The notes under the pieces: generated by a model | What the model saw: only the letters and a program-made list of their open reading frames with translations | Database searches by the model: none | Told to the model about the DNA's origin: nothing | Shown: piece by piece, positions 11,202 through 34,256 of the stretch | Layout: each line of letters starts with the position of its first letter | How positions within the stretch are numbered: the first letter of the stretch is position 1 | Position numbers and translations under genes: made by a program | Origin: Pirellulales bacterium | GTDB taxonomy: Bacteria > Planctomycetota > Planctomycetia > Pirellulales > UBA1268 | Reading direction: 5' to 3' | NCBI GenBank assembly: GCA_017853835.1 | Contig: JAFMIU010000003.1 | Coordinates: forward strand, 41,072 to 105,071 | Length of the DNA stretch: 64,000 nucleotides

Positions 11202-13061
11202 TCATTCAGCGGGAGTGACTCCGAGCACGACCGCCTCGAGCGGCGGAAGCGTCACGACGGTGGTGTCGCCGTCCTTGGCAAACGCCACCTTCGCCGCTTC
11301 GCCCGAGGCGGTGAACAACTGCGTGACGTCTGCTCCGGCCGAATCGATCCGCCACGCATACGGCTTCTCGCCACGGTTGAATCCGACGAGCAGATTCTCG
11401 CCGCCGTCGAACCGTCGAAACGCGAAAAACCCCGCATCATCGTCGGCGGACAGAAACTCGATACCGCCGCGACGGAGGGCCAGATGGATCTTTCGAAACG
11501 CGATCGCGGCCCGATAAAACTCGAACAGCGGCTGGCTGAATGCCACGGCATCCGGCTCGCGGGGCCGACCGCGGGGATCGGCGGCCTGAGGCGCAAACCG
11601 CATATCGGGCCACACCATCGGCATGCGGTCGCAGGGATCGTCGGCCCCCCACATGCCCGCCTCGGTGCCGTAGTAGATCATTGGCGCACCGATGAAGGTG
11701 AGCTGCAGGAGCGCCACCATTCGCTGGATTCGACGGTCGGTGGCGTCGGGCTTGCGGAGCCGATAGTCGTCGTGGTGCCTCGGCGACACGGCGACGTCGT
11801 AATCGAACTTCTGCGGCTGCTCGTAGGGACGACGAGCCCGGTTGACGATCATCGAGGCCAGCCGGTCGGTGTCGTGCGAATCGACGAGATTGAGCATCGC
11901 ATACCGCATCGCCTCGGGATGGTCGTCGAGCCGGTCGTGAAACTCTCGGCTGGCACGGCTGGCCGGGAGCGTTGCGTCGATGAGGTAGCCCTTCGTCGGA
12001 AACGCGAAGCCGTAGTAGTTCATCGTGGCGTCGAAAGCGCCCTCATCGAGGAAGCGGCTTGCTTCCTCCCACTCCTCGGCCACGGTGTAGGCCTCCGGAT
12101 TGACCGCGTGCACGAGCGCGTGCCAGTCGCGCCAGAAGGCCACCGGCACCTCCCGGGCCACGTCGAGCCGCCAGCCGTCGATTCCGTCGGACGGATCACC
12201 GTCGCCGTCGGGATCCATCCACCGCTTCGTGATGTCGAGGATGTAGGCCTTCGGCCCGGGCCCAAGGTCTTTTCCGTCGGGCGTGTCGGCAAACTCGGGG
12301 AGCGTGTCGATGCCCCACCAGCAGCGGTATCTGAACTCGTTCTCGGGGGTGGCGGGATCGTCCTCCCGCTCGATCGTGTACCAATCGGCGTAGGGTGATG
12401 CCCGCCCCTTCTCCCGCACGTCTCGGAAGGCGAAAAAGTCGCGGCCGGTGTGATTGAAGACCCCGTCGACGATCACCCGCATGCCGCGGGCGTGGGCCTC
12501 CGAGACGAGCTTCAGAAACAGGGCGTCGGCCGCCGTCCACTTCCAGGTGGTCGGATCGCTCGTCTCGGTCGCCATGAGCGCCCTGTCACCGATCGGATCG
12601 GGGCCGAAGTGGGGATCGACATGGTGAAAGGAGCTGCCGTCGTATTTATGAAGCGAACGTGCGTGAAATACCGGATTGAAGTAGATCGCCGTGATGCCGA
12701 GGTTCTGCAGGTAGTCGAGCCGGTCGAACACGCCCTCGAGGTCGCCGCCGTAGCGACGATGAAAGACCCCGTGCTCGAAGAAGTCGGGCCCCATCTCTTT
12801 TTCCCAGTCGGCGCGGGCATACCAGTCGCCGTTCCACGGCGACACCGCCCACGACGCAGGCACATCCGCCTCGAGCGTGTCACGGGTGGGGTCGTTGCCT
12901 CGATCGCCGTTGGAGAACCGCTCGGGAAAGAGCTGGTAGAAGACCGCATCGGCAACCCATTCGGGAGCCTGGGGGCCATGCGGGCCTTGGGCGAGCCCAG
13001 GCACGGCCGCCACCACGGCGCCGACGGCCACCAGCCAGCCAAGCCCTCGTATCGCTGCCAT
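11202..13061 (-). CDS. GH13 alpha-amylase-family hydrolase (neopullulanase/cyclomaltodextrinase-like), secreted
   Basis: GH13 conserved regions VIVDGVFNHTGRD, IDGWRLDVAREVP, VAEEWE and LVDSHDTDR. Signal peptide MAAIRGLGWLVAVGAVVAAVPGLAQG. GGGAGAGGG lies immediately upstream of ATG 13061; ATG 13082 is an alternative start. Confidence 0.85.
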   Translation of the reverse strand: MAAIRGLGWLVAVGAVVAAVPGLAQGPHGPQAPEWVADAVFYQLFPERFSNGDRGNDPTRDTLEADVPASWAVSPWNGDWYARADWEKEMGPDFFEHGVFHRRYGGDLEGVFDRLDYLQNLGITAIYFNPVFHARSLHKYDGSSFHHVDPHFGPDPIGDRALMATETSDPTTWKWTAADALFLKLVSEAHARGMRVIVDGVFNHTGRDFFAFRDVREKGRASPYADWYTIEREDDPATPENEFRYRCWWGIDTLPEFADTPDGKDLGPGPKAYILDITKRWMDPDGDGDPSDGIDGWRLDVAREVPVAFWRDWHALVHAVNPEAYTVAEEWEEASRFLDEGAFDATMNYYGFAFPTKGYLIDATLPASRASREFHDRLDDHPEAMRYAMLNLVDSHDTDRLASMIVNRARRPYEQPQKFDYDVAVSPRHHDDYRLRKPDATDRRIQRMVALLQLTFIGAPMIYYGTEAGMWGADDPCDRMPMVWPDMRFAPQAADPRGRPREPDAVAFSQPLFEFYRAAIAFRKIHLALRRGGIEFLSADDDAGFFAFRRFDGGENLLVGFNRGEKPYAWRIDSAGADVTQLFTASGEAAKVAFAKDGDTTVVTLPPLEAVVLGVTPAE

Positions 13062-13190
13062 GACCCTCTCCCATGCGTCCATTCGACGTGAGGCACGCCC
13101 ATTTCTTGCCTCCCCGTCATGATGGATGGTACTAGATTATTCTGGCAAGCGGAGGCGGCGGCAGGCGAAATCACACGGAGAGGGTCTGCG

Positions 13191-16100
13191 ATGGGATGGC
13201 GAAGTCGTGTTGTCGCGGTGACGTGCCTGGCGGCATTCGCCGCGGCCAGCGCGTCCGCCGTCGATGTGTCGGCACCCCCGATTCTTCAGTGGTTCGACTC
13301 GACCTACAAAACCCAGGACCGCCGGGTTGCCGATTTCTTCATGGCGGGATATGGCTCCACGTGGATCCCCCCCACGGGCCGTGCCGACTCGGGAAACATG
13401 TCGGTCGGCTACGACGTGTTCGACCGGTTCGATCTCGGCTCCCCCTCCAATCCGACGCTCTATGGCACCGAACGGGGACTGAAGCAGTTTGCCTCGACGA
13501 TGCATCGGGCCGGGGGCAGCGTGGTGGCCGATTTGATCTGGAACCACAACGGCTTCAGCGACCTCGGCCGAAGCGGGTTTGCCGCCCAGGGCGGCTATCC
13601 CGGCTTCGTGCTCTCCGCGTCGGGTGCCGTCGACGGCGACTTTCACGGAGTGTTTGAGTCGGGCGACCTCAACGGCCGTCTCGCCGGCCTCGTTGACATC
13701 AAGCACGAAACGAACCTCCAGTACATCCGCACCCCGGTCGCGGCGAACGACCCTCGCAACATTCCTGCCGGCACGATCTGGAACAAGCCCGACGCCTCCA
13801 ACACCCGCTTCTATCCTGATCGCGACCTCGGGGGCACCGCGGTCTACAACCCGCTCACCGGGCAGTCCGTCACGCTCTACGACTTCAACACCGCCTCGCC
13901 ATCGGCCGGCGACGCCGTCACCGAAAATGCCCTTGGGCTTTTGATGCGCAACGCCCGCTGGATGGTCAACCACATCGGCGTGGACGGCTTTCGGCTCGAT
14001 GCGGCGCGGCACTTCGAGCCCTGGGTCATGGGCTACTTCGATCAGGCTGTCTACCGCGCCAACCGTCGAACGCTGCTCAACGGCGCGCCGATGGAAGTGT
14101 TCAGCTTCAGTGAAAGTGCCAGTACCGACCGGGCCAATCTCATGTCGCAGTTCGTCCGGAAGGACGTCGGCACCCTCCCGGCCGGCCAGATCGCCGGCAA
14201 CCGCGACGCGCTCGATTTTGCCCAGTTCTGGCCGATCAAAAACAACCTCACGGCCGACGGCGCCGTCAACGATTTCCGCAACATGGTCAACGCCGGCCTC
14301 GACGCCTACGACGACGGCAGGGTCAACGGCTCGGCCGGCGTGGTGTTCGTGCAGAGCCACGACGACTTCGGCCCCGACATGCTCAACGTCGCCTATGCGT
14401 TCTCACTGATGCGGCCGGGCAACGCCATCGTCTACTACAACGCCAACGAGCACTACGACCCCAGCCGCGGCTTTCCGAAGCAGGGCCGCGGTGATGCCCT
14501 CGGCAACTTTGGCGACCGCATCACGACGCTCGTCGATCTCCGGGGCCGTTATGGCCGTGGGGACTACCGAGAACGGTGGCTCGAAAAGGAAAACTACGCC
14601 TTCGAGCGGAGCAACTCGGCGCTCGTGCTCCTTTCCAACCGTAACGACTCGGGCTACGACTCCCGGTCGATGGCGGTCGACTTCACGCTCGGTTCGCGGC
14701 TCGTCGAACTCACCGGCAATGCCGCCCGGGCCAACGCTGCGGCCGGCTCTTCGCAGATTCCGGAGGTGCTGCCCGTCGTCGGCACCACTGGCAGCCGCTA
14801 TGTCAACGCCCGGTTTCTCCGAAACAACGCCCAAGACCAGGGCTACCTCGTGTATGGATTGCCGACGCCGAAGTCGGCCGCTGGGATCGAGTTTCTCGGA
14901 CCCGGGGTGGGACCGGTGATCGCCGGAGAAACACCGGCAGGATTCCAGGGGGGCGAGACGACCGCCCAGGCAACGGCCATCCACAAGGCCAACGCCACGT
15001 CGCGGCTGGCCGACATGCAGGTCATCACCGGCAACACGTTCACCGTGCGGCTCGCGACGCAGGCCGTGACGCTCGCCGACGGCTACCGCGACCGTCATGC
15101 CGACGGGGATCAGGCGATGCTCCGAATCAATGGCGGGCTCGACCTCAACGGCAATGGCTTTGTCGACGTCGTCGCGCCGGGTGACGTGTCGTATGGCTTC
15201 GAAAACTTCACCTCGACGCGGATCACGGGCTACTCGCAGGCCAGTGGCAACGGCCTCTTCGAGCAGGTCATCGACACCACGCGGCTGCCCGAGGGGATGA
15301 ACTTTCTCACCGTGCGGTCATTCCGTCATCGTGATCTCGCCACTGGCGGCGACGGCGGCCCGGCCGTGTTCAGCGAGTTCAAGGAGGTGCTCTACGTCGA
15401 CCGCCTTCCCCCGGAAGCCGCCTTCAATCGCTACGTGCCCTTTGCCGGCACTGGCAACAACGACGTCTGGCTGGAGTCGGCCGACGGCACGGCCGACAGC
15501 ATGTATGTGTTTCAGAACGTGCCGGCCGCCACGAGCAACGCGACGATCCTGGCCTGGGCCAATGCTGGCCAGGGCATCACCGACAAGATCGACCAGGGAA
15601 TTTTCAAGAAGGGCTTCTTTTCGGTTCCCAACGGCAACAACGTCTACACCGTGGTCACCAAGGAGATCACCGGCAACTACAACATCCAACGCCTCACTGG
15701 CCAGACTCCAGCCTCGGGACGGGGAGCCGGCTTCGGCGACCTCAACTTCGACGGCATCCGTGCCGCAGCCGACATCTCCGGGCAGTCGTATTCCTTCGAG
15801 ACCATCCTCGCGTCGAAAAACGCCTCGTTCAACGCGGCCGCTGACGTGTCGGGGGACGGGCTCGTCGACACCCGTGACCTGCTCCTTCTCGAAGGCCTGC
15901 TGAGCGGCTCCGCCAACTCGGCCGCCGCGTCGGCGCTCGCCGGCGTGAAGTTCCGACGGGTCAACTTCGTGAACGACGCCGCGATCAACGAGGCCGATTT
16001 GGGGCTGCTGAGGGCCGTCGCCGCCGCACCGGCTGGTGCCGACCTGTGGACGTTTGACTTGGATGTGAGCGGCACGATCGACGACGGCGACGTGCAGCTC

Positions 16101-17234
16101 GCCCAGCAGCGGTTTGGGGTGGCCCCGGGCGTGGGTGTGCCGGCATCGCTGACCTGGACCGCCAGCGGCACGGCCCCAGGTGGCGCCGGCACATGGACGA
16201 CCGGAGCGACGGGCTGGCGGGGCGCGATCACCGACGCCGCGCTCCCCATGCCGCTGGTTCCCGGTTCGAAGGCACGGTTCTCGGGCGCGGGCATCGACGT
16301 GACGGTGTCGGGCACCGTCCTGGCGGCGGGGGGCCTCGAGTTTTCACCGCAGGGGAGTGCCATGCTGACGGGCACCGGCACGATCCTGCTGGCCGGCACC
16401 GGAGCGTCGGCACGCGAAATCACGGTCACGGCTGGGGAGGCGGTCATCGCCGCACGGCTCGCCTCGTCGTCAGGCCTGCTCAAGACGGGTTCCGGAACGC
16501 TCGTTCTCTCGGCGATGAACGCCCTCTCCGGCAGCGCGACGCTCCACGAGGGCACCCTTCGGCTGGGCCACCCCTCGGCGCTCGCGGCGAGCCCGGTCGT
16601 CGTGACCGGGGGAACGTTTTCGCTCGGCGGGGAACTCACGGCCAGCGTCGGGGGCCTCGGCATGACACCCGGCGCCGGGCTTGTCGATCTGGAGGGTGGC
16701 CGGCTCTCGATCGCGGCGGGCGGCATCGATCCGACGACACTGGTCGGTCTGTTGGTGGCCGGACGTGGCGACGGCACCTGGAACGGCGAATCGGGAATCT
16801 CCTCGTCGTCCGTTTCCGCCCTGATCACCGCCGGCCAACCTCGATCGGTCGGCTGGCTTCAGGCCGACGACGGCTCGTTCGTCGTGGCAGGGGCAGCCCC
16901 GGGTGACATGGACCTCGATGGCGCGATCGACATCCTCGACATCAGCGGCTTCCTGTCGGCTGCGAGTTTCAATGGCGACCCTGGCGCCACATGGCAGCAG
17001 GGCGACTTCAACTACGACACGGTTGTCGACGCGCTCGATATCGCCGATCTCCTTGCCACAGACCTCTTCGACCAGGGGAGCTACCTCGCGTCGGCGTCGC
17101 TGCCTCGGGGGGCGGTTGCGACGGTTCCGGAGCCCTCGGGAGCCGCCGGAGGCGTCGCGATGGCCGTGATCCTCGCTGCGGCCGCCGTAGGTCGTGGCTG
17201 GAGACCGGGGCACCCTCTCGGCCGTCGCCCTTGA
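13191..17234 (+). CDS. cell-surface alpha-amylase: GH13 catalytic domain + dockerin-like repeats + PATR beta-strand repeats + PEP-CTERM anchor
   Basis: GH13 regions [28 protein letters not shown] and FVQSHDDFG. Signal peptide [23 protein letters not shown] after GGAG. Dockerin-like repeats [24 protein letters not shown] and [16 protein letters not shown] repeat [31 protein letters not shown]-terminus [27 protein letters not shown]. Confidence 0.8.
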
Positions 17235-17316
17235 CGCTGCCGTGACGCGGGTCGATAGTTTTGAGTCGAGGGCGGCGGGCGGATCGATCGGCGACCCCTT
17301 GGTCAGGAGAGGGATC

Positions 17317-18354
17317 ATGCGTGGACACGATCGTCGATGTCGAGCCGTTTCATTCCCGTTTCGAAAGGATTCCCGCGGCTTCACGCTCGTGGAACTCCTG
17401 GTGGTGATCGCGATCATCGCCACCCTCATCGGCCTCCTCCTTCCCGCCGTGCAGAGTGCTCGCGAGGCGGCCCGCCGTTCGTCGTGCAGCAACAAACTTC
17501 GGCAACTGGCGCTCGGCACGCTCAACTACCACGAGGCCAAGAAGCGGTTTCCCGTGAGCGTCTCGCAGTGGGGTGAGGGGGGCGCCCCGAACGCCTGCGA
17601 TCGTCAGGGATCCGGATGCACGGCGCGAGGCTGGATTCTGGAGACACTTCCCTTCATGGAGGAGTCGGCCCTCTACGACCAGCTCGCTCCCTCGGCCAAG
17701 GGCAACATCTACTCGCGAGGCGGCCTCTGGCTCGTGCGCGGGTTTTTGGCCAGCCCGCTCCAGTCGCTCGCCTGCCCGACCGATCCCGATGCAATGCAGA
17801 AGTTTCGGGTCGACATCAGCGGCGTGACGGGCCCCTACATGGAGCAGTCGATGCAGGGCACGGAGGTGGCGGTCACGAGCTACAAGGGCGTGCTCGGCGC
17901 GACCAAGGTGGGCGGATCCTACGGCAGCATCTGGCCGCGTCACGACGACGAGCCTGGCGCCCCGGTCGACTGCCACAACAACACCCGCAACATCGGCTGC
18001 AAGGGCATCTTCTGGCGCAACTCCTACCTCCATCCCGTCAAGATGAAGGACGTGACCGACGGCACGAGCAAGACACTCCTGATTGGAGAGGCCGTCTACG
18101 CCCACGACCACCACGCGGTGGCCCTCTACGCCGATGGCGACTGGGCCGCGTGCAACGTGCCGCTCAACTACCTTCCCAAGCCGCCCGTGCCTCAAAACTG
18201 GTGGAACGTGCGGGGATTCCGAAGCCTGCACGCCGGCGGCGCGACGTTCGCCCGCGCCGACGGCTCCGTGCGGTTCACCGAGGAAACGATCGACATGACG
18301 ATCTACATCGCCCTGTCGACCTGCGGCCGTGGCGATTCAACGGGGGCCGAATGA
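17317..18354 (+). CDS. DUF1559 protein with prepilin-type N-terminal cleavage/methylation domain (H-X9-DG family)
   Basis: [34 protein letters not shown] at the N-terminus. C-terminal [18 protein letters not shown] (H-X9-DG). AGGAGAGGG before ATG 17317. The upstream part of the track ORF overlaps the amylase gene. Confidence 0.9.
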
Positions 18355-18800
18355 CCGTGGCGTCGCGTCGACTCCTGTTCGTGATCGCAGCCGTGTCGGG
18401 CCTCATCGTCACCGGCTGTGGACGCCATGCCGCGAAGGTCTCCGGAAGCGTCTCGTTCGACGGCCAGCCGGTGACGACGGGCGTCGTGACGTTCAACCCC
18501 GTATCGTCGGGCGCTGCCGCCTACGGTCCGATCGGCACCGACGGCCGCTACACGATCCACACCGGAGCCGAAACGGGACTCGAGCCTGGCGACTACAAGG
18601 TGACCGTGGCCGCCAACGCCACACCCGAGCAGGCGGCCGCCATGGGTTTCAAGGTAGGCCGAGAGGGCATCATGCCGCTGCTGACGCCGATCCGGTATGC
18701 CGACACCTCGACGACCCCGCTGACGGTGGCGGTCAAGCCCGGGTCGCAGGTCATCGACCTCAGCCTCGAACGCGATGCGCCCCGCCGGCCACCGCGGTGA
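18351..18800 (+). CDS. small lipoprotein, carboxypeptidase-regulatory-like beta-sandwich (DUF1559 partner), copy 1
   Basis: ATG 18351 overlaps the DUF1559 stop codon (ATGA). Lipobox [41 protein letters not shown]. Only the last 150 codons of track ORF 17616..18800 are real. Confidence 0.7.
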
Positions 18801-18825
18801 TTTCCTGCTGCCTGTTGGAGCCCCC

Positions 18826-19299
18826 ATGCGATCCATGCTTTCCACCCGTCGCATCCCGCTCGCGCCCCAGTCGTCGTCATCTGCGCCGGCCCCCATGGGC
18901 TGGTGGACGCTGGCCCTCATTCTTGTGGCAGCCATCGGCTGCGGGCGGCCGGCCGAGGTGACGGGCCGCGTGACGCTCGACGGCGAGCCGGTGCCAGCGG
19001 GCGTGGTCACGTTTACGCCCGTCGGCGGTGGACCCTCGGGGTATGGCGCCATTACCCCAGACGGCCGCTATTCCGTCCAAACAGGCAGCAAAAACGGTGT
19101 GCCCCCGGGCGACTACCGGGTGACCGTGGCTGCCAACGCGCTGCCGTCGGAGGGTGTGCCGACCGGTCCTGGGCAACTGTCGGACGGCATTGCTCCCCTC
19201 ATCACCCCAGCCCGGTATGCCGATCCGGCCGAGACGCCACTCCGGGCCACCCTGGTGTCGGGCACGCAAGAGCTTCCACTCGACCTCACAAGTCAGTGA
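18826..19299 (+). CDS. small lipoprotein, paralog of the preceding gene, copy 2
   Basis: Roughly half the residues are shared with copy 1 by eye (VTGRVTLDGEPVPAGVVTF..DGRYSV..GDYRVTVAAN..PLITPARYADP..TPL). Lipobox AAIGC. GGAG before ATG 18826; ATG 18895 is an alternative start. Confidence 0.7.
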   Translation: MRSMLSTRRIPLAPQSSSSAPAPMGWWTLALILVAAIGCGRPAEVTGRVTLDGEPVPAGVVTFTPVGGGPSGYGAITPDGRYSVQTGSKNGVPPGDYRVTVAANALPSEGVPTGPGQLSDGIAPLITPARYADPAETPLRATLVSGTQELPLDLTSQ

Positions 19300-19574: not shown

Positions 19575-20408
19575 ATGAGCCGCTCAAGCACCTTTCTTTC
19601 GGCTTTTCTCGTGGCTGTCCTCGCCGTTCCCGCCGTCGCCGCGGAAGGCACGTCGTCGCCGTATTCGGACGCGATCGGCGACATTGATGCCACCATCACC
19701 ACCGGTAATGGCACGCTCGACATCGTCGGCATGGAAGTGAGCAATACGGCCACCGACATCTCCTTCAAGCTCACCGTCAACGGCAATGTGAATGCCGGCA
19801 CTGGCGGTACTGACTGGGGCAAGTTCCTGATCGGCATCGCCACGCAGAAGACCGATGGAACCCTCTTGGGCAACGGATGGGGCCGTCCCATCAATCTGTC
19901 GTATGACAACGATCCCTTCGCCACCCAGATCGTCGGCATGAACCACTGGATTGGCGCGTGGGTCGATGGCTCGAGTGCCCAGGCCGCGGTTGGCGGAGCC
20001 GAATTCTATACGTACGACAACGGTGGTGCCACGTGGGTTCGCAACGCGGCGACCTGGGATGTTGGCACCTATCCGTATCCCTACACGGTGACCGGCGGCG
20101 TCCAGAGCACCGTCGAATGGGCCTTCCCGCTGTCGCTCATGAATCTCGTTCCGGGCAACGTCATCTACTTCGACGCCTATTCCAGCGGCGGTGGTGGCTC
20201 GGACAGTGCCATCGATTCGCTGGCGAATCCCAACATCGCAGTCACTGACTGGTCGGGACCCTACACCTCGTATGCCACCGCGGCCGGTGGACCTGGGCTC
20301 AACGCCTACACGGTCGCCGTGCCGGAGCCGGCGACGGCCCTCGCCGGTGTGGCGATCGCCGCCATCGCGGCTGCCACGCGAATCGGTCGCCGTTCCGTGG
20401 TCGCGTGA
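19575..20408 (+). CDS. PEP-CTERM-anchored secreted protein (possible carbohydrate-binding beta-sandwich)
   Basis: Signal peptide MSRSSTFLSAFLVAVLAVPAVAAEG. C-terminus VPEPATALAGVAIAAIAAATRIGRRSVVA. GGAG 10 nt before ATG 19575. Confidence 0.75.
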   Translation: MSRSSTFLSAFLVAVLAVPAVAAEGTSSPYSDAIGDIDATITTGNGTLDIVGMEVSNTATDISFKLTVNGNVNAGTGGTDWGKFLIGIATQKTDGTLLGNGWGRPINLSYDNDPFATQIVGMNHWIGAWVDGSSAQAAVGGAEFYTYDNGGATWVRNAATWDVGTYPYPYTVTGGVQSTVEWAFPLSLMNLVPGNVIYFDAYSSGGGGSDSAIDSLANPNIAVTDWSGPYTSYATAAGGPGLNAYTVAVPEPATALAGVAIAAIAAATRIGRRSVVA

Positions 20409-20505
20409 TCCGCGATGTGACCCGTCCCTCGGCCCCGTCCACACGCCCCCGGGTCGGCCTTCTCGGCCGATCCGGGGTGTGGTGTTTCTGAGGGATCCCG
20501 ATCCC

Positions 20506-22314
20506 ATGAACATCCTCGGCGTTTCCGCCTTCTTCCACGACAGCGCCGCCGCCCTCGTTCGCGATGGCGAGATCGTGGCCGCCGCCCAGGAAGAACGGTT
20601 TACCCGCCGCAAGCATGACGACGCCTTCCCGTCCCAGGCGGCGTCGTGGTGCCTCGCCCGCGGCGACATCTCGTGCGCCGAACTCGACGCGGTGGTGTTT
20701 TACGAGAAGCCGCTCGTGAAGTTCGAGCGGCTGCTCGAGACGGCGCTCGCCTTCGCCCCCCGAGGCTTTCGCTCGTTTGCCACCGCGATGCCACCGTGGC
20801 TCCAGCGGAAGCTCCATCTGCCTCGCGAGATCGACAAGGGGCTCGGTGGCACCTACTCCGGCCCGATCCTGTTTGCCACGCACCATGAGTCGCATGCGGC
20901 AAGCGCCTTCTACCCCAGCCCCTTCGACGAGGCGGCGATCCTCACACTCGACGGCGTCGGCGAATGGAGCACTGCCACCTGGGGCACCGGGCGGGGCGGA
21001 CGCATCTCGCTCGATTCCGAGATGCGGTTCCCTCATTCGCTCGGCCTGCTCTACAGCGCCTTCACGCTCTCTTGCGGGTTTCGCGTGAACTCCGGGGAAT
21101 ACAAGCTCATGGGGCTCGCGCCCTACGGCGAGCCTCGCTACGCCGACACGATCCTTCGCGAGATCGTCGACCTTCGCGACGACGGCTCCTTCTGGCTCGA
21201 TCAGCGATTTTTTGACTACGCCGCCGGACTCCGCATGACGAGCCGTCGATTCAACCGGCTCTTCGGCGGACCGCCGCGACGGCCAGACGCCCCGCTGACC
21301 GACCGCGAGATGGATCTCGCCGCCAGCGTGCAGCGGGTGACCGAGGAGATCGTGCTGCGGATGGCTCGGCACGTGCATGCCCGAACCCATCTGCCACATC
21401 TCTGCATGGCCGGTGGCGTGGCCCTCAACTGCGTCGCCAATGGCCGCCTCCTACGGGAGGGACCGTTTGAACACCTTTGGATCCAGCCGGCGGCGGGCGA
21501 CGCGGGAGGCGCGCTCGGGGCCGCGCTGGCCCATTGGTTCAACCACCTGGGCAATCCACGCACGGCCAACGCCAACGACTCTCAGAAGGGTTCGCTGCTC
21601 GGACCCGAGTTTGACGCCGACGCCATCGACACCGCCCTCGACGGCTGCGGTGCGGTTCGTCAGGTCTTTTCCGACGAGTCGTCGCTCACCGAGGCCATCG
21701 CGGCCGAACTTGCCGCTGGCCGGATCGTCGGCCATTTCGACGGGCGGGCGGAGTTTGGTCCCCGGGCGCTCGGCAACCGGTCGATTCTCGCTGACCCGCG
21801 CTCCCGCGACATGCAGCGACGGCTCAACGTGGCGATCAAGTTTCGGGAGTCGTTCCGCCCCTTTGCCCCGGCGATCCTTCGCGACCGCGCCCGCGAGTAC
21901 GTGTCGCTCGACGCCGAGAGTCCCTACATGCTGCTCGTCGCTTCGGTCGAGGGGGCGGTGACGGCGGGCGATCGCAGCACGGGCCTCGATCGGCTTCGCG
22001 ACGTGGGCGGACCGATTCCTGCCGTGACCCATGTCGACGGGTCGGCCCGCGTGCAGACGGTCGATGCCGTTCGGTCGCCGAGGCTGCATGGTATTCTCGA
22101 ATCGTTCGCACGGCAGACGGGCTGCCCCGTGCTCGCGAACACGAGCTTCAACATCCGTGGAGAGCCGATCGTGCACGACCCGGCCGACGCCTACCGCTGC
22201 TTCATGTTCACCGACATGGATGCTCTCGTCGTGGGTCGAAACCTGCTGCGGAAGCAGGAGCAGCCTCCGCTCGCGGGAGCAGAGGCCTACAAGCGGTCGT
22301 TCCGCCCCGACTGA
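20506..22314 (+). CDS. carbamoyltransferase (NodU/CmcH/SxtI family)
   Basis: N-terminus MNILGVSAFFHDSAAALVRDGEIVAAAQEERFTRRKHD. C-terminal-domain blocks FGPRALGNRSILADPR, FRPFAP, THVDGSARVQTV and NTSFNIRGEPIV. No signal peptide. The track's upstream extension (from 20191) overlaps the PEP-CTERM gene. Confidence 0.9.
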   Translation: MNILGVSAFFHDSAAALVRDGEIVAAAQEERFTRRKHDDAFPSQAASWCLARGDISCAELDAVVFYEKPLVKFERLLETALAFAPRGFRSFATAMPPWLQRKLHLPREIDKGLGGTYSGPILFATHHESHAASAFYPSPFDEAAILTLDGVGEWSTATWGTGRGGRISLDSEMRFPHSLGLLYSAFTLSCGFRVNSGEYKLMGLAPYGEPRYADTILREIVDLRDDGSFWLDQRFFDYAAGLRMTSRRFNRLFGGPPRRPDAPLTDREMDLAASVQRVTEEIVLRMARHVHARTHLPHLCMAGGVALNCVANGRLLREGPFEHLWIQPAAGDAGGALGAALAHWFNHLGNPRTANANDSQKGSLLGPEFDADAIDTALDGCGAVRQVFSDESSLTEAIAAELAAGRIVGHFDGRAEFGPRALGNRSILADPRSRDMQRRLNVAIKFRESFRPFAPAILRDRAREYVSLDAESPYMLLVASVEGAVTAGDRSTGLDRLRDVGGPIPAVTHVDGSARVQTVDAVRSPRLHGILESFARQTGCPVLANTSFNIRGEPIVHDPADAYRCFMFTDMDALVVGRNLLRKQEQPPLAGAEAYKRSFRPD

Positions 22315-22344
22315 CGTCCCGCCCTCCTCGACGGAGCCCCTTCG

Positions 22345-22500
22345 ATGCGACGCCGATCCTTCCTCGCCGAGCTCACCGACTTCATCTGGACCAACAAGGC
22401 CTGGATGCTCGCCCCGGTGATCGTGGTGCTGTTGCTGGTGGGCGTCTTGATCATCCTCGGCGGCACGCAGGCGGCCCCCTTCATCTACACGCTCTTCTGA
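22345..22500 (+). CDS. 51-aa single-TM peptide (DUF5989/SxtK-like), not in the ORF track
   Basis: GGAG 22333-22336, ATG 22345, TGA 22498-22500. Translation MRRRSFLAELTDFIWTNKAWMLAPVIVVLLLVGVLIILGGTQAAPFIYTLF. Lies between the carbamoyltransferase and the SxtJ-like gene. Confidence 0.7.
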   Translation: MRRRSFLAELTDFIWTNKAWMLAPVIVVLLLVGVLIILGGTQAAPFIYTLF

Positions 22501-22522
22501 AGACGGCAGGAGGGCCTACGGC

Positions 22523-22942
22523 ATGATCACGATCGACTGGCATCCGTCGCCGGCGGCACTTCGCCGCTGGGCTGTGACCGTCGCCGCGGCATTGGCGGTG
22601 TCGGGATCGCTGTTTCACTTCGTCGACTGGGGAATGTTTCGCGCCGGCCATGCCATGGCGCCGTGGCTCTGGGGCTTTGGGGCCGTGGCCCTCCTGACCG
22701 CGGGCACAGGCACCCGCATCGGCCTTCCCGCCTACTGGGCGTGGATGGCCTTCGTCTGGATGGTCGGCACCACGATCGGTGTCGTGGCCCTTGCCGTGGC
22801 CTTTTATGGCGTCGTCACGCCGCTTGGCATCGCTGCTCGGCTCGCCGGACGGGATCGACTGTCGCTCCGTCGCCCACCCCCGAACCAGTCGCTGTGGCAT
22901 CCCCTTCCCCCGGGGCCGCACGACCCGGCCCGTCAGTTCTGA
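22523..22942 (+). CDS. SxtJ-like small integral membrane protein
   Basis: 139 aa with about 4 hydrophobic helices (WAVTVAAALAVSGSLF, LWGFGAVALLTA, AYWAWMAFVWMVGTTIGVVALAVAFYGVV). AGGAGGG before the ATG. Size and position match the sxtJ partner of sxtI-type transferases. Confidence 0.65.
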   Translation: MITIDWHPSPAALRRWAVTVAAALAVSGSLFHFVDWGMFRAGHAMAPWLWGFGAVALLTAGTGTRIGLPAYWAWMAFVWMVGTTIGVVALAVAFYGVVTPLGIAARLAGRDRLSLRRPPPNQSLWHPLPPGPHDPARQF

Positions 22943-22949
22943 ACCTGCC

Positions 22950-24932
22950 ATGACGACACCCGCCAGCCGTGATGCCGATGCATCCCCGACCACTGCGACT
23001 CCTCTTCCGGCGTGGAAGAAGCGTCTCTTCATGGCCATCACGCTGGCCCTGCCGCTGATCGTCCTCGCGATGGTGGAGGGTCTTCTCCGGCTCGGTGGCT
23101 GGGGTGGCTATCCCGCGTTCATCCGAGTGGCGGGTCATCTGCCGAACGGGGCGTCGGTCGCCATCGTGGAACCGGCGGCTTCGAAGCCCTACTTCTTCGC
23201 CAATCCCACCCGCCCAGGCTACGCGGAGGAGACGAGCTTCCTGATGCCGAAGCCGGAGGGCACGGTGCGAATCTTCCTGGTGGGAGAGTCGGCCGCCAAG
23301 GGCTATCCGCAGCCGCGCAACCTCTCGATGCAGTCGTTTCTGCAGGAGATGCTCGGCGATGCATGGCCCGATCGGAAGGTCGAGGTGATCAGCCTCGGCA
23401 CCACGGCGGTGGCCAGTTTCCCGCTCGTCTACCTCACGCGGGAGGCTCTTCGCTACGACCCTGATCTGATGGTGTTGTACGTCGGCAACAATGAGTTTTT
23501 CGGCGCCTACGGCGTCGCGTCGATCAACTCCTTTGGCACGCTGCCCAGCTTGGCCCTTCCGGCAATGAGGGCGTTTCGTGGGCTGGCCCTCGTGCAGGCG
23601 ATCGAGGGAACGCTCCGGAGCCGGGCCGACGAAGACCGCACGCTCATGGAGCAGATGATCGGCAACACGTCGATCCCACCCGCGTCGCCCCTCCGCGACG
23701 CGGCGGCCCGCAATCTCGAAGTGCACGTCGGCCGCATGATCGATGCCACCGTGGCCGCCGGCGTGCCGGTCCTCGTCTGCACCACGGCGAGCAACGAGTC
23801 GGGACTGGCCCCCCTCGGCGAGAGCGACGAAGCGGCCAGGGCGTTTGCCGAGGCGCGGCATCTGGCACAGGAGGGACCAAAGGATCGCGCCCGGGAAGCC
23901 TTCCTGCGAGCCCGCGATCTCGACCCGATGCCGTGGCGGCCGATCACCGGCACCGAAGCAGCCATCCGGCGGGCAGCGACCACGCGAAACGCCGCTCTGT
24001 GCGACGTGGCCACGGTGTTTCGGGACATGTCCGACGAGGGGGCCGCGGGCTGGGATCTGCTCGACGACCATGTGCATCTCTCCCTGCGTGGTCAGGCAGA
24101 GGCGGCGAGGGCGATGGTCGGTGCGATGGCGGCCCTCCCGGCCGCCGTGCGGGTCGATCCGGCGCGGGCATCATCGCTTCCCGATTGGCAGACGTATGCC
24201 AAACGGCTTGGCACCAACGAGTGGGACGACTATCGCGTCCATCACACGCTCCGCGTGCTCTTCGGCGTGCCCTTCATGAAACGCCACAATCCGGAGGCTC
24301 TCGCGCGTTTTGAAGCGGCCTGCACGACGATGGAACGACGGATGACGCCCCCCCTCGCCGAGATCGCCCGACAATGGCAGTCGTTCAAGCCGCACGCTGG
24401 CGGGCTCCGTCCGCTCACCGGCATGGTCGCCCGCGAACTCCTGAAGCAAAACAAAACCAGCGAGGCGGAGCGTCTCTATGCGATCGCGCGTCGGCAGGTG
24501 CCCGACTACACCTCGTGGTATCTCGAATATGTCTACTTCATGCTGGCCTGTCGCGAGCGGATCGGTGGCGGGCTCTCCGAGGCGGATCGCGACGAGGCGG
24601 CTCGGGCGATCGACCAGGGACGGTTCCTCTTGGCGCACGGTTTCTCGTCGACTGGGTTCACGGAGCGCTACGTGGGGAGGCTCCACCAGCTCCGGGGCGA
24701 ATGGGCCGAGTCGATTCCATTCCTGCGGGCTGCTCGCCCCAAGCTCGCGACCACCGACCTCGTCGCGTGTGATCAGGCCCTCGTCGAGGCCTACCGCCAC
24801 ACCGGCGACCTCGCCGCCGCCCGGGCCATCATCGAGCAGGGGCAGCGTGAGTCGAGGCGTTTTGCCGATGCCTACCGCACGATGGAAGCATCGCTCATCG
24901 ATTCCGCGACACCCCCTCCGCCAAGCCCCTAG
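22950..24932 (+). CDS. membrane-anchored SGNH/GDSL-like hydrolase with C-terminal TPR-like helical repeats
   Basis: N-terminal TM KKRLFMAITLALPLIVLAMVEGLL. SGNH blocks IFLVGESAAKGYP (Ser), LYVGNNEF and LLDDHVHLSLRG (Asp/His). Helical C-terminal half. Starts 7 nt after the SxtJ-like gene. Confidence 0.7.
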   Translation: MTTPASRDADASPTTATPLPAWKKRLFMAITLALPLIVLAMVEGLLRLGGWGGYPAFIRVAGHLPNGASVAIVEPAASKPYFFANPTRPGYAEETSFLMPKPEGTVRIFLVGESAAKGYPQPRNLSMQSFLQEMLGDAWPDRKVEVISLGTTAVASFPLVYLTREALRYDPDLMVLYVGNNEFFGAYGVASINSFGTLPSLALPAMRAFRGLALVQAIEGTLRSRADEDRTLMEQMIGNTSIPPASPLRDAAARNLEVHVGRMIDATVAAGVPVLVCTTASNESGLAPLGESDEAARAFAEARHLAQEGPKDRAREAFLRARDLDPMPWRPITGTEAAIRRAATTRNAALCDVATVFRDMSDEGAAGWDLLDDHVHLSLRGQAEAARAMVGAMAALPAAVRVDPARASSLPDWQTYAKRLGTNEWDDYRVHHTLRVLFGVPFMKRHNPEALARFEAACTTMERRMTPPLAEIARQWQSFKPHAGGLRPLTGMVARELLKQNKTSEAERLYAIARRQVPDYTSWYLEYVYFMLACRERIGGGLSEADRDEAARAIDQGRFLLAHGFSSTGFTERYVGRLHQLRGEWAESIPFLRAARPKLATTDLVACDQALVEAYRHTGDLAAARAIIEQGQRESRRFADAYRTMEASLIDSATPPPPSP

Positions 24933-25094: not shown

Positions 25095-25123
25095 TTGACA
25101 CTCCCGCATCAAAAGGGTTTCAT
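25095..25123 (+). promoter_or_regulatory. sigma70-like promoter candidate for the PSD1/DUF1501 pair
   Basis: TTGACA (25095-25100), 17 nt, TTTCAT (25118-25123), about 100 nt upstream of ATG 25227. The TTG used as the track start codon is the -35 box itself. Confidence 0.35.
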
Positions 25124-25226
25124 GGACTACGGTTTCTGGTCTCCCGCCGATCGCTCCGCATTCTTGACGCGGAGCCGCGTCGTGTGCTCGCGTCACGACG
25201 GCGACGCGGGTGGCTCCCGAGGAGCG

Positions 25227-28200
25227 ATGCTCATGGGTCACATCGCCATGGCGTTCACCGGTATGGCCCTGCTCCTGGCATGGTCGAGCCTGACCGACAG
25301 GATGGCGGTCGGAGCCGCGCCGTCGGTGGACTTCAACCGCGACATTCGCTCCCTGCTCTCGGATCGATGCTTCGCCTGTCACGGGCCCGACGCGGAGGAT
25401 CGTCAGGCCGGCCTGCGGCTCGATCAACGTGACACGGCCACGGCGACCCTCGAGAGCGGCGGCGTGGCGATCGTGCCGCACGACATCGACGCCAGCCAAC
25501 TCATCGCTCGGATCACGAGCAATGACCCCGACCTGATCATGCCGCCGGCCGAGCTGGGGAAGCCGCTCTCGGCCGATGAGGTGGAGCTGCTGAGCCGTTG
25601 GGTGGCGGCGGGCGCTCCCTATGAGGAGCACTGGGCCTTTCGACGCATCGAGCGTCCTGCGGTGCCGACGGTACGCGACACCACCTGGCCTGCCAACCCG
25701 ATCGACCACTTCGTGCTGGCTCGGCTCGAAGCCGAGGGACTCCCGCCGAATCCAGAGGCTGACCGGATCACGCTGGCTCGGCGGCTGTCACTCGATCTGA
25801 CCGGACTTCCTCCGACTTCGGCCATGGTGGACGCCTTTCTCGCTGACACCTCGGCCGGTGCCTCTGAACGATATGTCGATGCCTTGCTGTCGAGTCCGCA
25901 TTTCGGTGAACGGATGGCACTCGAGTGGCTCGACGCGGCGAGGTATGCCGACAGCCATGGGTACCAGACCGACTCCAGTCGATCGAACTGGCCCTGGCGA
26001 GACTGGCTCATCCGCGGCTTCAACGACAACAAGCCGTTCGACGCGTTCACGATCGAGCAGCTTGCCGGCGACCTTCTTGACGATCCGACCCGTGACCAGA
26101 TCGTGGCCACCGGCTTCAACCGCAATCATCGGATCAACGGCGAGGGTGGCATCATCGCGGAGGAGTGGCGGGTGGAAACGGTCATCGACCGGGTGGAAAC
26201 AACCTGCCAGACCTGGCTCGGGCTGACTGCAGGCTGTGCCCGTTGTCACGACCACAAATACGACCCGATCTCCCAGCAAGAGTTCTACGCCCTGTTCGCG
26301 ATTTTCAACAACGTGCCTGAGTCCGGCACGATCATGGGCACGCAGAACCGAGCCGGCGGGAATTCCGAGCCGTTGCTCGAACTGCCCACACACGAGCAGG
26401 AGCAGGAGTTGGCTCGGCTCCAGCAGGTGGTCGCCGACGCTGAGGCCGCCGTGAAGTCGGAGGAGAAGAGCATCGATCAGCTCATCGCCCGCTGGGAACG
26501 GTCACTCGGGCCTGCCCTCGAACCCGACCGTCCTATCTGGGAGGCGTTTGAGCCGCTGGAGTTGAAGACGGCCAGCGGCGCCTCCTTTCGGCGGATCGAG
26601 GACGGATCGTGGCTCGTGGAGGGCACCGATGCCCCACGCGACACCTACGAGTTCGAAGCCCTCCTGCCGGGACAGGCATTCGGCGGTTTGCGGCTGGAGG
26701 TCCTGCCCGACCCCTCGTTGGCCGACGGCGGCTTCAGCCGGCAAGGCAATGGCAACATCGTGGTCTCTCGCATCGAAGTGGAAATCGAGCCGGCCGATGG
26801 GGGAGATCCGATCCCCGTGAAACTCACCCGCGCCGACGCCGACTACGAGCAGAAAAACTGGCCGGCGGAGGCCGTGCTCGCGGGCCGCAAGGGCCGTGGC
26901 TGGGCGATCGACGGGCATGATCCGGACAAGCGGCAGCCTCGGCGGCTGGCCGTTTTTCCCTCTGCATCGACGGTCGTCTCGGAAAACTCCCGAATCATCG
27001 TCCGGGTGAGGCAGGAGGCGCTCGACCGGCATTCGATCGGCCGCCTCCGCCTGGCGATCACCGCCGCCGATCCATCGGTGTTGGGCGTCGAGGGGCTTGC
27101 GATTCCAGCCGACGTTCGTGCGGCCTTGGCGGTGGCAGCCGAGGAACGATCGACTCCGCAGCGAAAGGCGGTCCGAACGTTTTACCGAAAGCGGGTCGAC
27201 GGCCCGATCCGACGGGCCGAGGCGACAAGGGATGCAGCGCGAAAGAGTCTGGTCGAGTTCCGCAACGGGCTGCCCTCGGCAATGGTGATGCGGGAGGGCC
27301 CCGTTCGCGATGCGTTCGTGCTCGTGCGGGGCGAGTACGACAAGCCTGGCGAGAAGGTCGTGGCCGGGCTCCCGGCCTTTCTGCCGCCCCTTCCGGCCGG
27401 GGAGAAGCCCGACCGTCTCTCGCTGGCACGCTGGCTCGTGTCGCCCGACAATCCGCTCACCGCCCGGGTCCAGGTCAACCGTCTCTGGGAACGCTTCTTT
27501 GGCACAGGCATCGTCAAAACCAGTGAGAATCTTGGCAGTCAGTCCGAGTTTCCGAGCCACCCGGAACTGCTCGATTGGCTCGCGGTCGAGTTCAGGGAGG
27601 GGCGTTCGTTGCCGGCCGTGAATGGCGTGCCCGCGGGTCCTTGGAACATGAAAGCCCTCGTGAAGCTGATGGTGACGAGCGCCGTGTACCGGCAGGCGTC
27701 CACCATCAAGCCGCAGCATCTCGCCCGCGATCCGGAGAATCGACTTTGTGCCCGCGCCGGCAGGATTCGCCTCCCGGCGGAGCTGGTCCGCGACCGGGCC
27801 CTCGCCGCCTCCGGGCTGCTGGTGCCGACAATCGGCGGACCGAGCGTGCGGCCCTGGATGCCCGATGGAGTCTGGGACGACACCAGCCGGTACGGCGACC
27901 TGCGAGGCTACAAGCCCGACACGGGGCCCGGCCGCTATCGGCGAAGCATGTACACGATCTGGAAGCGCACCGCCGCCCCGCCCACGATGCTCCTCTTCGA
28001 CGCGCCCAATCGCGAGACGTGCCAGGTGCGGCGTTCGCGCACGAACACGCCGCTCCAGGCCTTGGCACTGCTCAATGAGCCGACCTTCGTCGAGGCTGCC
28101 CAGTCGCTCGCCAAGCGAATGCTCGTCGAAGGGGGTGACGCTGCCGCCGACCGCATTCGACACGGCTTCCGGCTTGCGATCGGCCGTCCACCGACGGACG

Positions 28201-28394
28201 CCGAAGTGGCGGCGTTGGCCGAAGGATTCGCGGCCGACCAGGCGGCGTTTGCGGCCGATCCCGCAGCCGCCGAGCGGCTCACCGGGTTTGGCCTCGTGGC
28301 ACCGCCCGAGGGCGTGTCGCTGCCTGAATTCGCCGCCTACTCGCTGACGGCCAACGTGATGATCAACCTCGACGAATTCGTGATGCGGGAGTGA
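25227..28394 (+). CDS. PSD1 protein: planctomycete cytochrome-c domain + DUF1549 + DUF1553
   Basis: Signal/TM MLMGHIAMAFTGMALLLAW after GGAG. CFACHGPDAEDRQAGLRLD (PSCyt-type CXXCH). DUF1549 block ITLARRLSLDLTGLPPTSAMVDAF. Second CXXCH CARCHDHKYDPISQQEFY. DUF1553-type C-terminal half. Confidence 0.9.
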   Translation: MLMGHIAMAFTGMALLLAWSSLTDRMAVGAAPSVDFNRDIRSLLSDRCFACHGPDAEDRQAGLRLDQRDTATATLESGGVAIVPHDIDASQLIARITSNDPDLIMPPAELGKPLSADEVELLSRWVAAGAPYEEHWAFRRIERPAVPTVRDTTWPANPIDHFVLARLEAEGLPPNPEADRITLARRLSLDLTGLPPTSAMVDAFLADTSAGASERYVDALLSSPHFGERMALEWLDAARYADSHGYQTDSSRSNWPWRDWLIRGFNDNKPFDAFTIEQLAGDLLDDPTRDQIVATGFNRNHRINGEGGIIAEEWRVETVIDRVETTCQTWLGLTAGCARCHDHKYDPISQQEFYALFAIFNNVPESGTIMGTQNRAGGNSEPLLELPTHEQEQELARLQQVVADAEAAVKSEEKSIDQLIARWERSLGPALEPDRPIWEAFEPLELKTASGASFRRIEDGSWLVEGTDAPRDTYEFEALLPGQAFGGLRLEVLPDPSLADGGFSRQGNGNIVVSRIEVEIEPADGGDPIPVKLTRADADYEQKNWPAEAVLAGRKGRGWAIDGHDPDKRQPRRLAVFPSASTVVSENSRIIVRVRQEALDRHSIGRLRLAITAADPSVLGVEGLAIPADVRAALAVAAEERSTPQRKAVRTFYRKRVDGPIRRAEATRDAARKSLVEFRNGLPSAMVMREGPVRDAFVLVRGEYDKPGEKVVAGLPAFLPPLPAGEKPDRLSLARWLVSPDNPLTARVQVNRLWERFFGTGIVKTSENLGSQSEFPSHPELLDWLAVEFREGRSLPAVNGVPAGPWNMKALVKLMVTSAVYRQASTIKPQHLARDPENRLCARAGRIRLPAELVRDRALAASGLLVPTIGGPSVRPWMPDGVWDDTSRYGDLRGYKPDTGPGRYRRSMYTIWKRTAAPPTMLLFDAPNRETCQVRRSRTNTPLQALALLNEPTFVEAAQSLAKRMLVEGGDAAADRIRHGFRLAIGRPPTDAEVAALAEGFAADQAAFAADPAAAERLTGFGLVAPPEGVSLPEFAAYSLTANVMINLDEFVMRE

Positions 28395-28398
28395 CGCG

Positions 28399-29865
<1,467 letters not shown>

Positions 29866-33880: not shown

Positions 33881-34107
33881 GGGCCGGAGTGTACGACGAG
33901 GAACATGGATGGTGGTGGCGATGCCACCGTCGGCCGGACTGGCATGAACCAATCACGTTCTCATCGGGGTGGCAGGCGATGCAGGATGAACCACGGGGTC
34001 GGCTCCCGTGGAGTCCGAGAGACCGCGGGGCGCGTCGTTGAGCCTCGGATTGACCGGCCGCCCCCCGCCACGATCACCGCCTGAAACATCGATCACTGGT
34101 CCAGTTC

Positions 34108-34137
34108 TTGACTCAGTCATCGACCGCCTCGCATACT
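34108..34137 (+). promoter_or_regulatory. sigma70-like promoter candidate for the giant PATR gene
   Basis: TTGACT (34108-34113), 18 nt, CATACT (34132-34137), about 120 nt upstream of ATG 34257. Confidence 0.25.
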
Positions 34138-34256
34138 TTATGACTCTTGAGCCGCGCCTCCGAAAACGCTTTTCACAGGCGACGAGGGCGTTCTCCATCG
34201 TGGGGAGAGGTCCTGGCACCATCGAATCGGAATCACACGTCTTCGGAGTTTCCGCC

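Follow-up and report, generated by a model that had tools for sequence, protein, structure and literature searches.

Saxitoxin clusters carry four adjacent genes, sxtI, sxtJ, sxtK and sxtL, the last of which encodes a GDSL lipase with a proposed role in decarbamoylation (PMC2679770, PMC2684587), and the suomilide cluster of Nostoc carries sxtJ, sxtK and sxtL together (PMC10157211). Here we describe a related arrangement in a 64,000-nucleotide stretch of DNA from a Pirellulales bacterium (assembly GCA_017853835.1, contig JAFMIU010000003.1, positions 41,072 to 105,071 of the forward strand; henceforth the window, with all positions counted from its first letter). As in sxtIJKL, genes for an O-carbamoyltransferase (g1), a protein of about 50 amino acids (aa; g2), a SxtJ-type protein from a family of about 135–147 aa (g3) and a GDSL/SGNH protein (g4) lie next to each other. 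The differences are that the order is I-K-J-L, that there are no toxin genes, that the cassette is headed by a gene for a PEP-CTERM protein (g0), and that g4 is 660 aa long with a tail of tetratricopeptide repeat (TPR) type while SxtL has about 426 aa (the two being compared by description only). The original prediction, made from the sequence alone, had treated g1–g4 as an orphan, self-contained unit for moving a carbamoyl group onto an envelope glycan or lipid. Its four open reading frames, with their coordinates, sizes, plus-strand orientation and gaps of 30, 22 and 7 nt, were all recovered; the triad g1–g3 is not strictly an orphan, given that the saxitoxin cluster also has the GDSL lipase gene sxtL beside sxtIJK (PMC2679770). 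The prediction had also overlooked g0, which belongs to the unit and makes it a five-gene cassette, g0-g1-g2-g3-g4. We propose, as a reading with about an even chance of being correct, that this cassette joins two autonomous modules of PEP-CTERM/exosortase-linked exopolysaccharide biology around one surface protein.

Other described systems resemble single components of the cassette. Enzymes of the TobZ type use carbamoyl phosphate and ATP to form carbamoyl-AMP, from which a hydroxyl group is O-carbamoylated; g1 aligns over its full length with solved enzymes of the TobZ/NovN/GdmN/NodU/NolO group and, by analogy, is expected to run the same chemistry. As far as we know, each of these enzymes works by itself, on a soluble antibiotic or a Nod factor, and no SxtJ or DUF5989 partners have been described for them. 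In the acylation systems AlgI/AlgJ/AlgF/AlgX, PatA/PatB and OatA, a periplasmic SGNH-fold enzyme is tied to membrane components and a cytoplasmic donor, and SGNH proteins of about 400 aa found beside distant relatives of g1–g3 (see below) match ALGX; the cassette differs from them in that it has no gene for a membrane-bound O-acyltransferase (MBOAT) or acyltransferase 3 (AT3) carrier, that g4 has no ALGX (PF16822) match, and that the group handled would be carbamoyl rather than acetyl. Finally, PelB/PelA, PgaA/PgaB and AlgK combine a TPR module with a polymer-editing periplasmic enzyme. The architecture of g4 resembles this combination, whereas g4 fuses both parts in one inner-membrane-anchored protein, carries an SGNH domain instead of a carbohydrate esterase 4 (CE4) deacetylase, and has no adjacent synthase or porin gene.

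The first module is the carbamoyltransferase trio g1–g3. The 602-aa product of g1 (20506–22314, plus strand) matches the Pfam families Carbam_trans_N (Kae1-like; 319.1 bits, cut-off 24) and Carbam_trans_C (YrdC-like; 218.8 bits, cut-off 27), and its residues 6–601 align with the solved structures of NovN (9s2t_A; E = 1.3e-91), GdmN (7vyj_A; 1.7e-87) and TobZ (3ven_A; 3.4e-75) in the Protein Data Bank (PDB). Hydropathy analysis detected no hydrophobic segment, in agreement with the earlier description of a NodU/CmcH-type carbamoyltransferase without a signal peptide, and by these matches g1 is classed as a cytoplasmic O-carbamoyltransferase of the TobZ/NovN/GdmN type. Its motifs HDSAA (residue 11), HHESH (126), DGVGE (149) and GDAGG (331) are putative metal and nucleotide sites. 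The 51-aa product of g2 (22345–22500, plus strand) is, as predicted, a protein with a single transmembrane segment (residues 21–39 by hydropathy), and it belongs to DUF5989 (PF19451; 66.8 bits, cut-off 27); its likeness to SxtK lies in size (51 vs. about 54 aa) and gene position only. Assignment of g3 (22523–22942, plus strand; 139 aa) to SxtJ is less direct: its own score against PF19588 (14.5 bits, E = 0.061) falls below the gathering threshold of 24.4 bits, but all 26 aligned homologues match SxtJ at E ≤ 0.1 (best 3.3e-9), several carry a precomputed PF19588 match, and relatives 37–45% identical to g3 are labelled “SxtJ family membrane protein” in RefSeq. The reading of g3 as a diverged SxtJ thus holds transitively, through its homologues. 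The roughly four transmembrane segments proposed for it are plausible, not firm, with two strong hydrophobic segments and two weaker, aromatic-rich ones judged by eye; its C-terminal tail is basic and conserved (GRDRLxLR...HDPxRQF).

The second module is g4. Its product (22950–24932, plus strand; 660 aa) has an N-terminal transmembrane anchor, an SGNH domain interrupted by a long helical insert, and at the C-terminus a domain of TPR-like type. It scores 28.7 bits against Lipase_GDSL_2, below the cut-off of 32.9, with faint TPR matches, and many of its homologues have a precomputed PF13472 match. The SGNH blocks quoted in the original prediction are present (GESAAKG at residue 112, YVGNNEF at 177 and DDHVH at 372), and in an alignment with 12 homologues the catalytic residues of blocks I, II, III and V (S114, G150, N180/N181, D373 and H376) are invariant. 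In the AlphaFold model (mean predicted local distance difference test score, pLDDT, 73.8), a transmembrane helix (residues 21–48) precedes an alpha/beta SGNH core and an all-helical tail (404–651); together with the one hydrophobic segment seen by hydropathy, this supports the predicted anchor and helical C-terminus. Foldseek matched the model to GDSL esterases, including 7e16_A (template modelling score, TM-score, 0.66) and 4q9a_A (0.61), to PatB (8tlb; 0.58) and to TPR proteins, those matching the TPR part including the peptide-binding kinesin light chain (KLC) and the protease partner LbcA. From sequence and model, g4 is accordingly classed as a putative SGNH hydrolase or acyltransferase with an SGNH plus TPR fold, whose SGNH-TPR part should face outward because positive residues precede its single transmembrane segment. 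Public gene calls differ in the start of g4, giving 633 or 660 aa; the sequence PLPxWKRRLF, conserved in homologues upstream of Met28, supports the longer form.

The partner gene g0 (19575–20408, plus strand) starts at an ATG at 19575 preceded by a GGAG ribosome-binding site and encodes a 277-aa protein. In it, a signal peptide (residues 1–25) is followed by a conserved domain some 220 aa long and, at the C-terminus, by a predicted PEP-CTERM sorting tail, recognisable in the translation and hydropathy profile as VPEP, a hydrophobic stretch and then RRSVVA. Its score against the PEP-CTERM family PF07589 is 17.6 bits (cut-off 20.7), and many g0 homologues carry PF07589. The AlphaFold model (pLDDT 70.8, predicted TM-score 0.70) was matched by Foldseek to the carbohydrate-binding module CBM9 (1i82_A, E = 9e-5; 7nwo, 4e-4) and EbdC (2ivf_C, 8e-5), and further to NxrC, the starch-binding protein Sas6 and the C-terminal region of glucodextranase, at TM-scores of about 0.43–0.45. 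The predicted fold is therefore a CBM9/DOMON-like beta-sandwich, for which glycan binding is likely, not established. One Bacteroidota-type locus has the g0 domain joined to a type IX secretion tail (Por_Secre_tail, 42.9 bits) in place of PEP-CTERM, and this exchange argues that surface location is the conserved property; in some Verrucomicrobiota the g0 domain is the N-terminal part of far larger proteins.

Between g0 and g1 lies a terminator-like hairpin (20447–20487, plus strand), with 13 pairs, of which 11 are G-C, followed by a T-rich tract (TGTGGTGTTT), in a window whose overall G+C content is about 67%. Under strict criteria, a hairpin with a T-run was found 3' of g0 in 35 of 65 distinct relatives vs. 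3 of 650 shuffles, and the relatives show 22 different stem sequences, meaning that the structure is kept while the sequence is not. It stands right behind the stop codon of g0 whether or not the trio separates g0 from g4 (at the same position in loci L005–L154), whereas the gaps of 30, 22 and 7 nt within g1–g4 are too short for a comparable element. This would be the layout expected if a structural gene were strongly expressed and transcription reached the accessory genes behind it by read-through.

To describe how the two modules are distributed, we scanned for g4, took one genome per species and classified the resulting 80 loci, all from metagenome-assembled genomes, by tblastn and hidden Markov models (HMMs). 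The hosts were Pirellulales/Planctomycetaceae, Phycisphaerales, Chthoniobacterales, other Verrucomicrobiota and Kiritimatiellia. In 46 of the 80 loci the trio immediately precedes g4 on its strand, and recurrence of the same order in so many species-level genomes means that the arrangement is not due to chance; among these 46, g0 is found further upstream in 27, the contig ends too early in 16, and no upstream g0 is present in 3. The gene order is conserved across orders of Planctomycetota, to which the trio is almost wholly confined in this survey. A second large group has no trio between the two partners: g0 directly precedes g4 in 20 loci, 18 of them without a carbamoyltransferase within 10 kb, and a PEP-CTERM protein not homologous to g0 directly precedes g4 in 5 more (L038, L051, L052, L056 and L068), so that g0 or another PEP-CTERM protein stands directly upstream of g4 in 25 of 80 loci, 23 of which lack a carbamoyltransferase within 10 kb. 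The g0 domain occurs nearby in some other arrangement in 5 loci (3 of them with a carbamoyltransferase-DUF5989 pair divergent from g4), and 4 loci have neither g0 nor trio (2 of these without any upstream sequence). What accompanies g4 even in loci lacking the trio is thus a sorted surface protein, usually g0. This is why the four genes g1–g4 do not form a self-contained unit, as the original prediction had it.

Some variants of this layout deserve mention in their own right. L016 and L117 (the latter a metagenome locus) have g0 downstream of g4. Chthoniobacterales have an SGNH-TPR gene on either side of g0, a weakly matching g4 paralogue (73–111 bits) upstream and g4 itself downstream (L027, 7148–12028; L046, 6945–12070; L070, 4813–9922). 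The g4 family itself is large (8991 clusters at 50% identity match its profile at E ≤ 1e-3, and 2141 at E ≤ 1e-30) and reaches KSB1 and Pseudomonadota; all members whose source names were checked bear generic names only. In one metagenome-assembled genome of Pseudomonadota (L156, 1–13833), two convergent SGNH-TPR paralogues lie beside a 2429-aa pullulanase-like protein, with a TonB-dependent receptor, a Trp-halogenase-like gene and a lone DUF5989 gene as other neighbours, and in L083 a pullulanase-like gene follows the g4 homologue. Several contigs with a cassette typical of the Planctomycetes-Verrucomicrobia-Chlamydiae (PVC) group (L016, L040, L055 and others) bear implausible organism names (Chitinophaga pinensis, Bifidobacterium, Klebsiella, Kuenenia), and their bin labels are probably wrong.

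We also scanned metagenomes for the trio using distant SxtJ-like proteins as queries, which gave 60 loci. Where it could be located, the trio order was carbamoyltransferase, DUF5989, SxtJ, with exceptions such as L059. About half of the 60 loci contain the g0/g4 cassette, and the remainder lack both g0 and g4. Among the latter, L091 has an exosortase upstream of the trio, and L089 has two tandem exosortase genes upstream and a Wzm/Wzt-type ABC exporter and epimerase genes downstream (here a DUF7718 gene, at 7200–7508, is inserted between the carbamoyltransferase and DUF5989 genes). Plasmid-borne copies of the trio are also present in three planctomycetes in culture (Aquisphaera giovannonii OJF2, Planctomyces sp. 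SH-PL62 and Paludisphaera borealis PX4), where they adjoin an exosortase, a Wzc-like tyrosine kinase and EpsI. These plasmid loci are like the cassette in their planctomycete hosts, their PEP-CTERM/exosortase context and the same trio, annotated in RefSeq; they are unlike it in their order (I-J-K), in SxtJ proteins only 37–45% identical to g3, and in having neither g0 nor an SGNH-TPR protein after the trio, which in SH-PL62 and P. borealis is followed instead by a cytoplasmic Mac/hexapeptide sugar O-acetyltransferase. The most distant trios (L144–L147 and L149; SxtJ identity 27–40%) lie among GT4, Polysacc_synt_2 and Bac_transf genes and are directly followed by a membrane-anchored SGNH protein of about 360–420 aa that matches ALGX and Lipase_GDSL_2. 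Similarly, plasmid pSC52_3 of Rhodobacteraceae SC52 carries SxtJ, DUF5989, carbamoyltransferase and a 405-aa GDSL protein in a row, the last related to the SGNH partners of the L144–L149 type (BLASTP E-values from 6e-9 to 2e-5); its DUF5989 open reading frame (L158, 9291–9491; 56.9 bits with a custom HMM) is unannotated in the public record. We considered a specific homology between g4 and these SGNH partners of about 400 aa and rejected it: BLASTP found nothing and hhalign gave E = 0.056 over block V only, which places them in different SGNH subfamilies. The neighbours of the trio in these loci (GT4, WbaP-like and CapD-like proteins, Wzm/Wzt, Wzc-like kinase, exosortase/EpsI) fit the glycan target that had been suggested from the window.

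Starting from the gene identities, folds, catalytic residues, synteny and modular distribution observed here, the cassette could work as follows. The g0 product would be an abundant, exosortase-sorted, secreted surface protein with a CBM9/DOMON-like, probably glycan-binding fold, and the hairpin behind its gene would pass only part of transcription into the four accessory genes. The membrane proteins g2 and g3 would probably tether the cytoplasmic g1 to the inside of the cytoplasmic membrane, and there g1 may carbamoylate a hydroxyl group on a sugar of a surface glycan that is lipid-linked or still being made. Anchored in this membrane too, g4 would expose its SGNH-TPR part on the outer side and there edit the exported polymer or a glycan on, or associated with, g0, by removing or transferring an ester-type group.

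Several observations weigh against this picture of two modules serving one surface protein. The g0 core has no match in Pfam, NCBIfam or PDB sequence searches, in which the sorting tail alone was matched; its model is of only moderate confidence, at the pLDDT of 70.8 and the TM-scores of just about 0.43–0.45 given above, and the haem-binding EbdC and NxrC score as well as CBM9 among its fold matches. The fold matches of g4 have Foldseek E-values of only about 1e-3, and its model has low pLDDT in the region of the catalytic loops. Among the genes of the 64-kb window there is no glycosyltransferase, flippase or exosortase; with two EpsH queries, tblastn detected no exosortase either in the window, which is all of the host genome that was covered, or in the g4-anchored loci. 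Moreover, the adjacency of the two modules could mean shared regulation and not a shared substrate.

The surroundings of the cassette in the window comprise an alpha-amylase, a PATR protein, a DUF1559 protein with an N-methyl motif, PSCyt1/PSCyt2-PSD1 and DUF1501 proteins and an FAD oxidoreductase, and several of these (DUF1559, PSCyt/PSD1 and DUF1501) are housekeeping genes typical of planctomycetes. The upstream block (11202–19299) is syntenic with positions 1–6665 of L151/L152 and conserved only in the window's own Pirellulales-type clade. It contains a minus-strand alpha-amylase gene of glycoside hydrolase family 13 (GH13), a 1371-aa PATR-repeat protein whose N-terminus weakly matches alpha-amylase, a DUF1559 pseudopilin-like protein and two small proteins, one of them weakly matching CarboxypepD_reg. 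Directly 3' of the cassette (25095–29865), a PSCyt1-PSCyt2-PSD1 gene (1099 aa) and a DUF1501 gene (488 aa) form a typical planctomycete pair, whose position next to g4 is kept only in close relatives. Farther downstream, an 1804-aa open reading frame (34008–39422) shares a C-terminal module of about 210 aa (38736–39353; 44% identity) with the 1371-aa protein (13119–17234), and a giant PEP-CTERM protein bearing this module lies directly 3' of g4 in L121, L124, L135 and L138.

Turning to other explanations, g0 and g4 may form a protein-directed pair in which the TPR part of g4 binds PEP-CTERM cargo while a lipase- or lysophospholipase-like SGNH domain makes or remodels a lipid or ester anchor attached by exosortase, the trio being merely co-located in Planctomycetota. 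The precedence of g0 before g4 in most genomes fits this idea, as do the g4-like paralogues on both sides of g0 in Chthoniobacterales and the peptide-binding KLC and protease partner LbcA among the TPR fold matches. The five loci with non-homologous PEP-CTERM proteins before g4 would moreover indicate that what matters is the tag or cargo class and not one fold. However, the distant SGNH-TPR members L155 and L156 have no PEP-CTERM neighbour among their Pfam-annotated genes, no exosortase is adjacent to g4 in any g4-anchored locus, and the placement of the trio exactly between g0 and g4 across Pirellulales and Phycisphaerales is hard to explain without a functional link. We regard such a protein-directed pair as unlikely.

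Less likely again is the trans-envelope relay suggested by the original prediction, in which carbamoyl activated by g1 in the cytoplasm would cross the membrane by way of g3 and g2 and be taken up by the periplasmic SGNH serine of g4, forming a carbamoyl-enzyme that transfers it to a polymer, by analogy with O-acetylation by AlgI/AlgJ/AlgX or PatA/PatB. In its favour is the recurrent company of the trio: membrane-anchored SGNH proteins accompany it in the g4 family, in the family of about 360–420 aa (L144–L147, L149 and the SC52 plasmid) and, according to the literature, as SxtL, that is, in at least two unrelated subfamilies besides SxtL. Such repeated association with outward-facing SGNH enzymes of different subfamilies argues for a functional link, and non-orthologous replacement of the partner suggests that the two are coupled. 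The ALGX match of the partners of about 400 aa, a family that models an acyltransferase-type SGNH domain, and the presence of PatB among the fold matches of g4 point the same way. An obligatory transfer from trio to SGNH protein is nevertheless argued against by the two surveys, since the trio often occurs without an SGNH gene in the available flanks (L089, L091, L098, L107, L108, L139 and the three Isosphaeraceae-type plasmids, with a cytoplasmic acetyltransferase instead in SH-PL62 and P. borealis) and 23 of 80 genomes have g4 behind g0 or another PEP-CTERM protein, with no carbamoyltransferase in the surrounding 10 kb. The proposed partnership with an SGNH protein is itself supported, as a pairing seen in several unrelated lineages. 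The biochemistry also speaks against a relay: g2 and g3 together provide only about 3–5 transmembrane segments, far fewer than MBOAT or AT3 carriers have; all characterised TobZ-family enzymes that we know of carbamoylate their final substrate directly; and carbamoyl-serine enzymes generally turn over slowly.

Alternatively, the cassette may handle alpha-glucans, with g0 binding starch- or glycogen-like polymers and g4 acting as an esterase on substituted glucans during uptake. This would accord with Sas6 and the glucodextranase C-terminal region among the g0 fold matches, with the GH13 alpha-amylase and the 1371-aa weak alpha-amylase match upstream in the window and its close relatives, and with the pullulanase adjoining g4 homologues in L083 and L156. 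We consider it very improbable, as most of the 80 loci have no GH13 gene in their flanks and the carbamoyltransferase trio is left unexplained; a general link between g4 and GH13 or alpha-glucans was rejected, being seen only in the window's clade, L083 and L156. Tailoring of a small metabolite, e.g., a saxitoxin-like carbamoylated natural product, is scarcely credible despite the occurrence of sxtI/J/K/L in the saxitoxin cluster and of sxtJ, K and L in the suomilide cluster, since genes for a biosynthetic core, such as a polyketide synthase, a non-ribosomal peptide synthetase or an amidinotransferase, are absent from the neighbourhood, the window neighbours of the cassette include none of the saxitoxin core genes (sxtA, sxtG, sxtB and others), which bears out the earlier remark that no other toxin-pathway gene is close and led us to reject a saxitoxin-like pathway, and the cassette is a conserved chromosomal feature of many PVC species.

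Our literature search found no mention of DUF5989, no relevant link between PEP-CTERM proteins and carbamoyltransferases, and nothing on SGNH proteins in connection with O-antigen carbamoylation, and we know of no experimental function for SxtJ, DUF5989, g0 or the g4 family. Already known are the gene families by annotation, the sxtIJKL adjacency in the literature and the RefSeq names of SxtJ and DUF5989 relatives. What looks new is that PVC genomes carry the five genes as one cassette, that g4 is paired with PEP-CTERM proteins and that the trio has an exosortase/exopolysaccharide context.

SxtJ and SxtK have been without an assigned function since the saxitoxin cluster was described. A bolder reading, which we think improbable, is that SxtJ, DUF5989 and an outward-facing SGNH enzyme form a new trans-membrane carbamoyl route whose target is the exosortase-sorted g0 or its bound glycan; if true, it would do for carbamoyl what the AlgI/AlgJ/AlgX and PatA/PatB relays do for acetyl, would at last give roles to SxtJ and SxtK and would add a new class, linked to PEP-CTERM sorting, to the known envelope modifications. 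The occurrence of SxtJ relatives and SxtK-like DUF5989 proteins as regular partners of O-carbamoyltransferases in exosortase/exopolysaccharide loci points to a general, membrane-associated role that is not toxin-specific, and the cultured planctomycetes named above are hosts in which the role of the trio could be tested. For the SGNH-TPR family, its pairing with PEP-CTERM proteins across Planctomycetota, Verrucomicrobiota and Kiritimatiellia provides a new lead on how exosortase cargo may be matured or bound.

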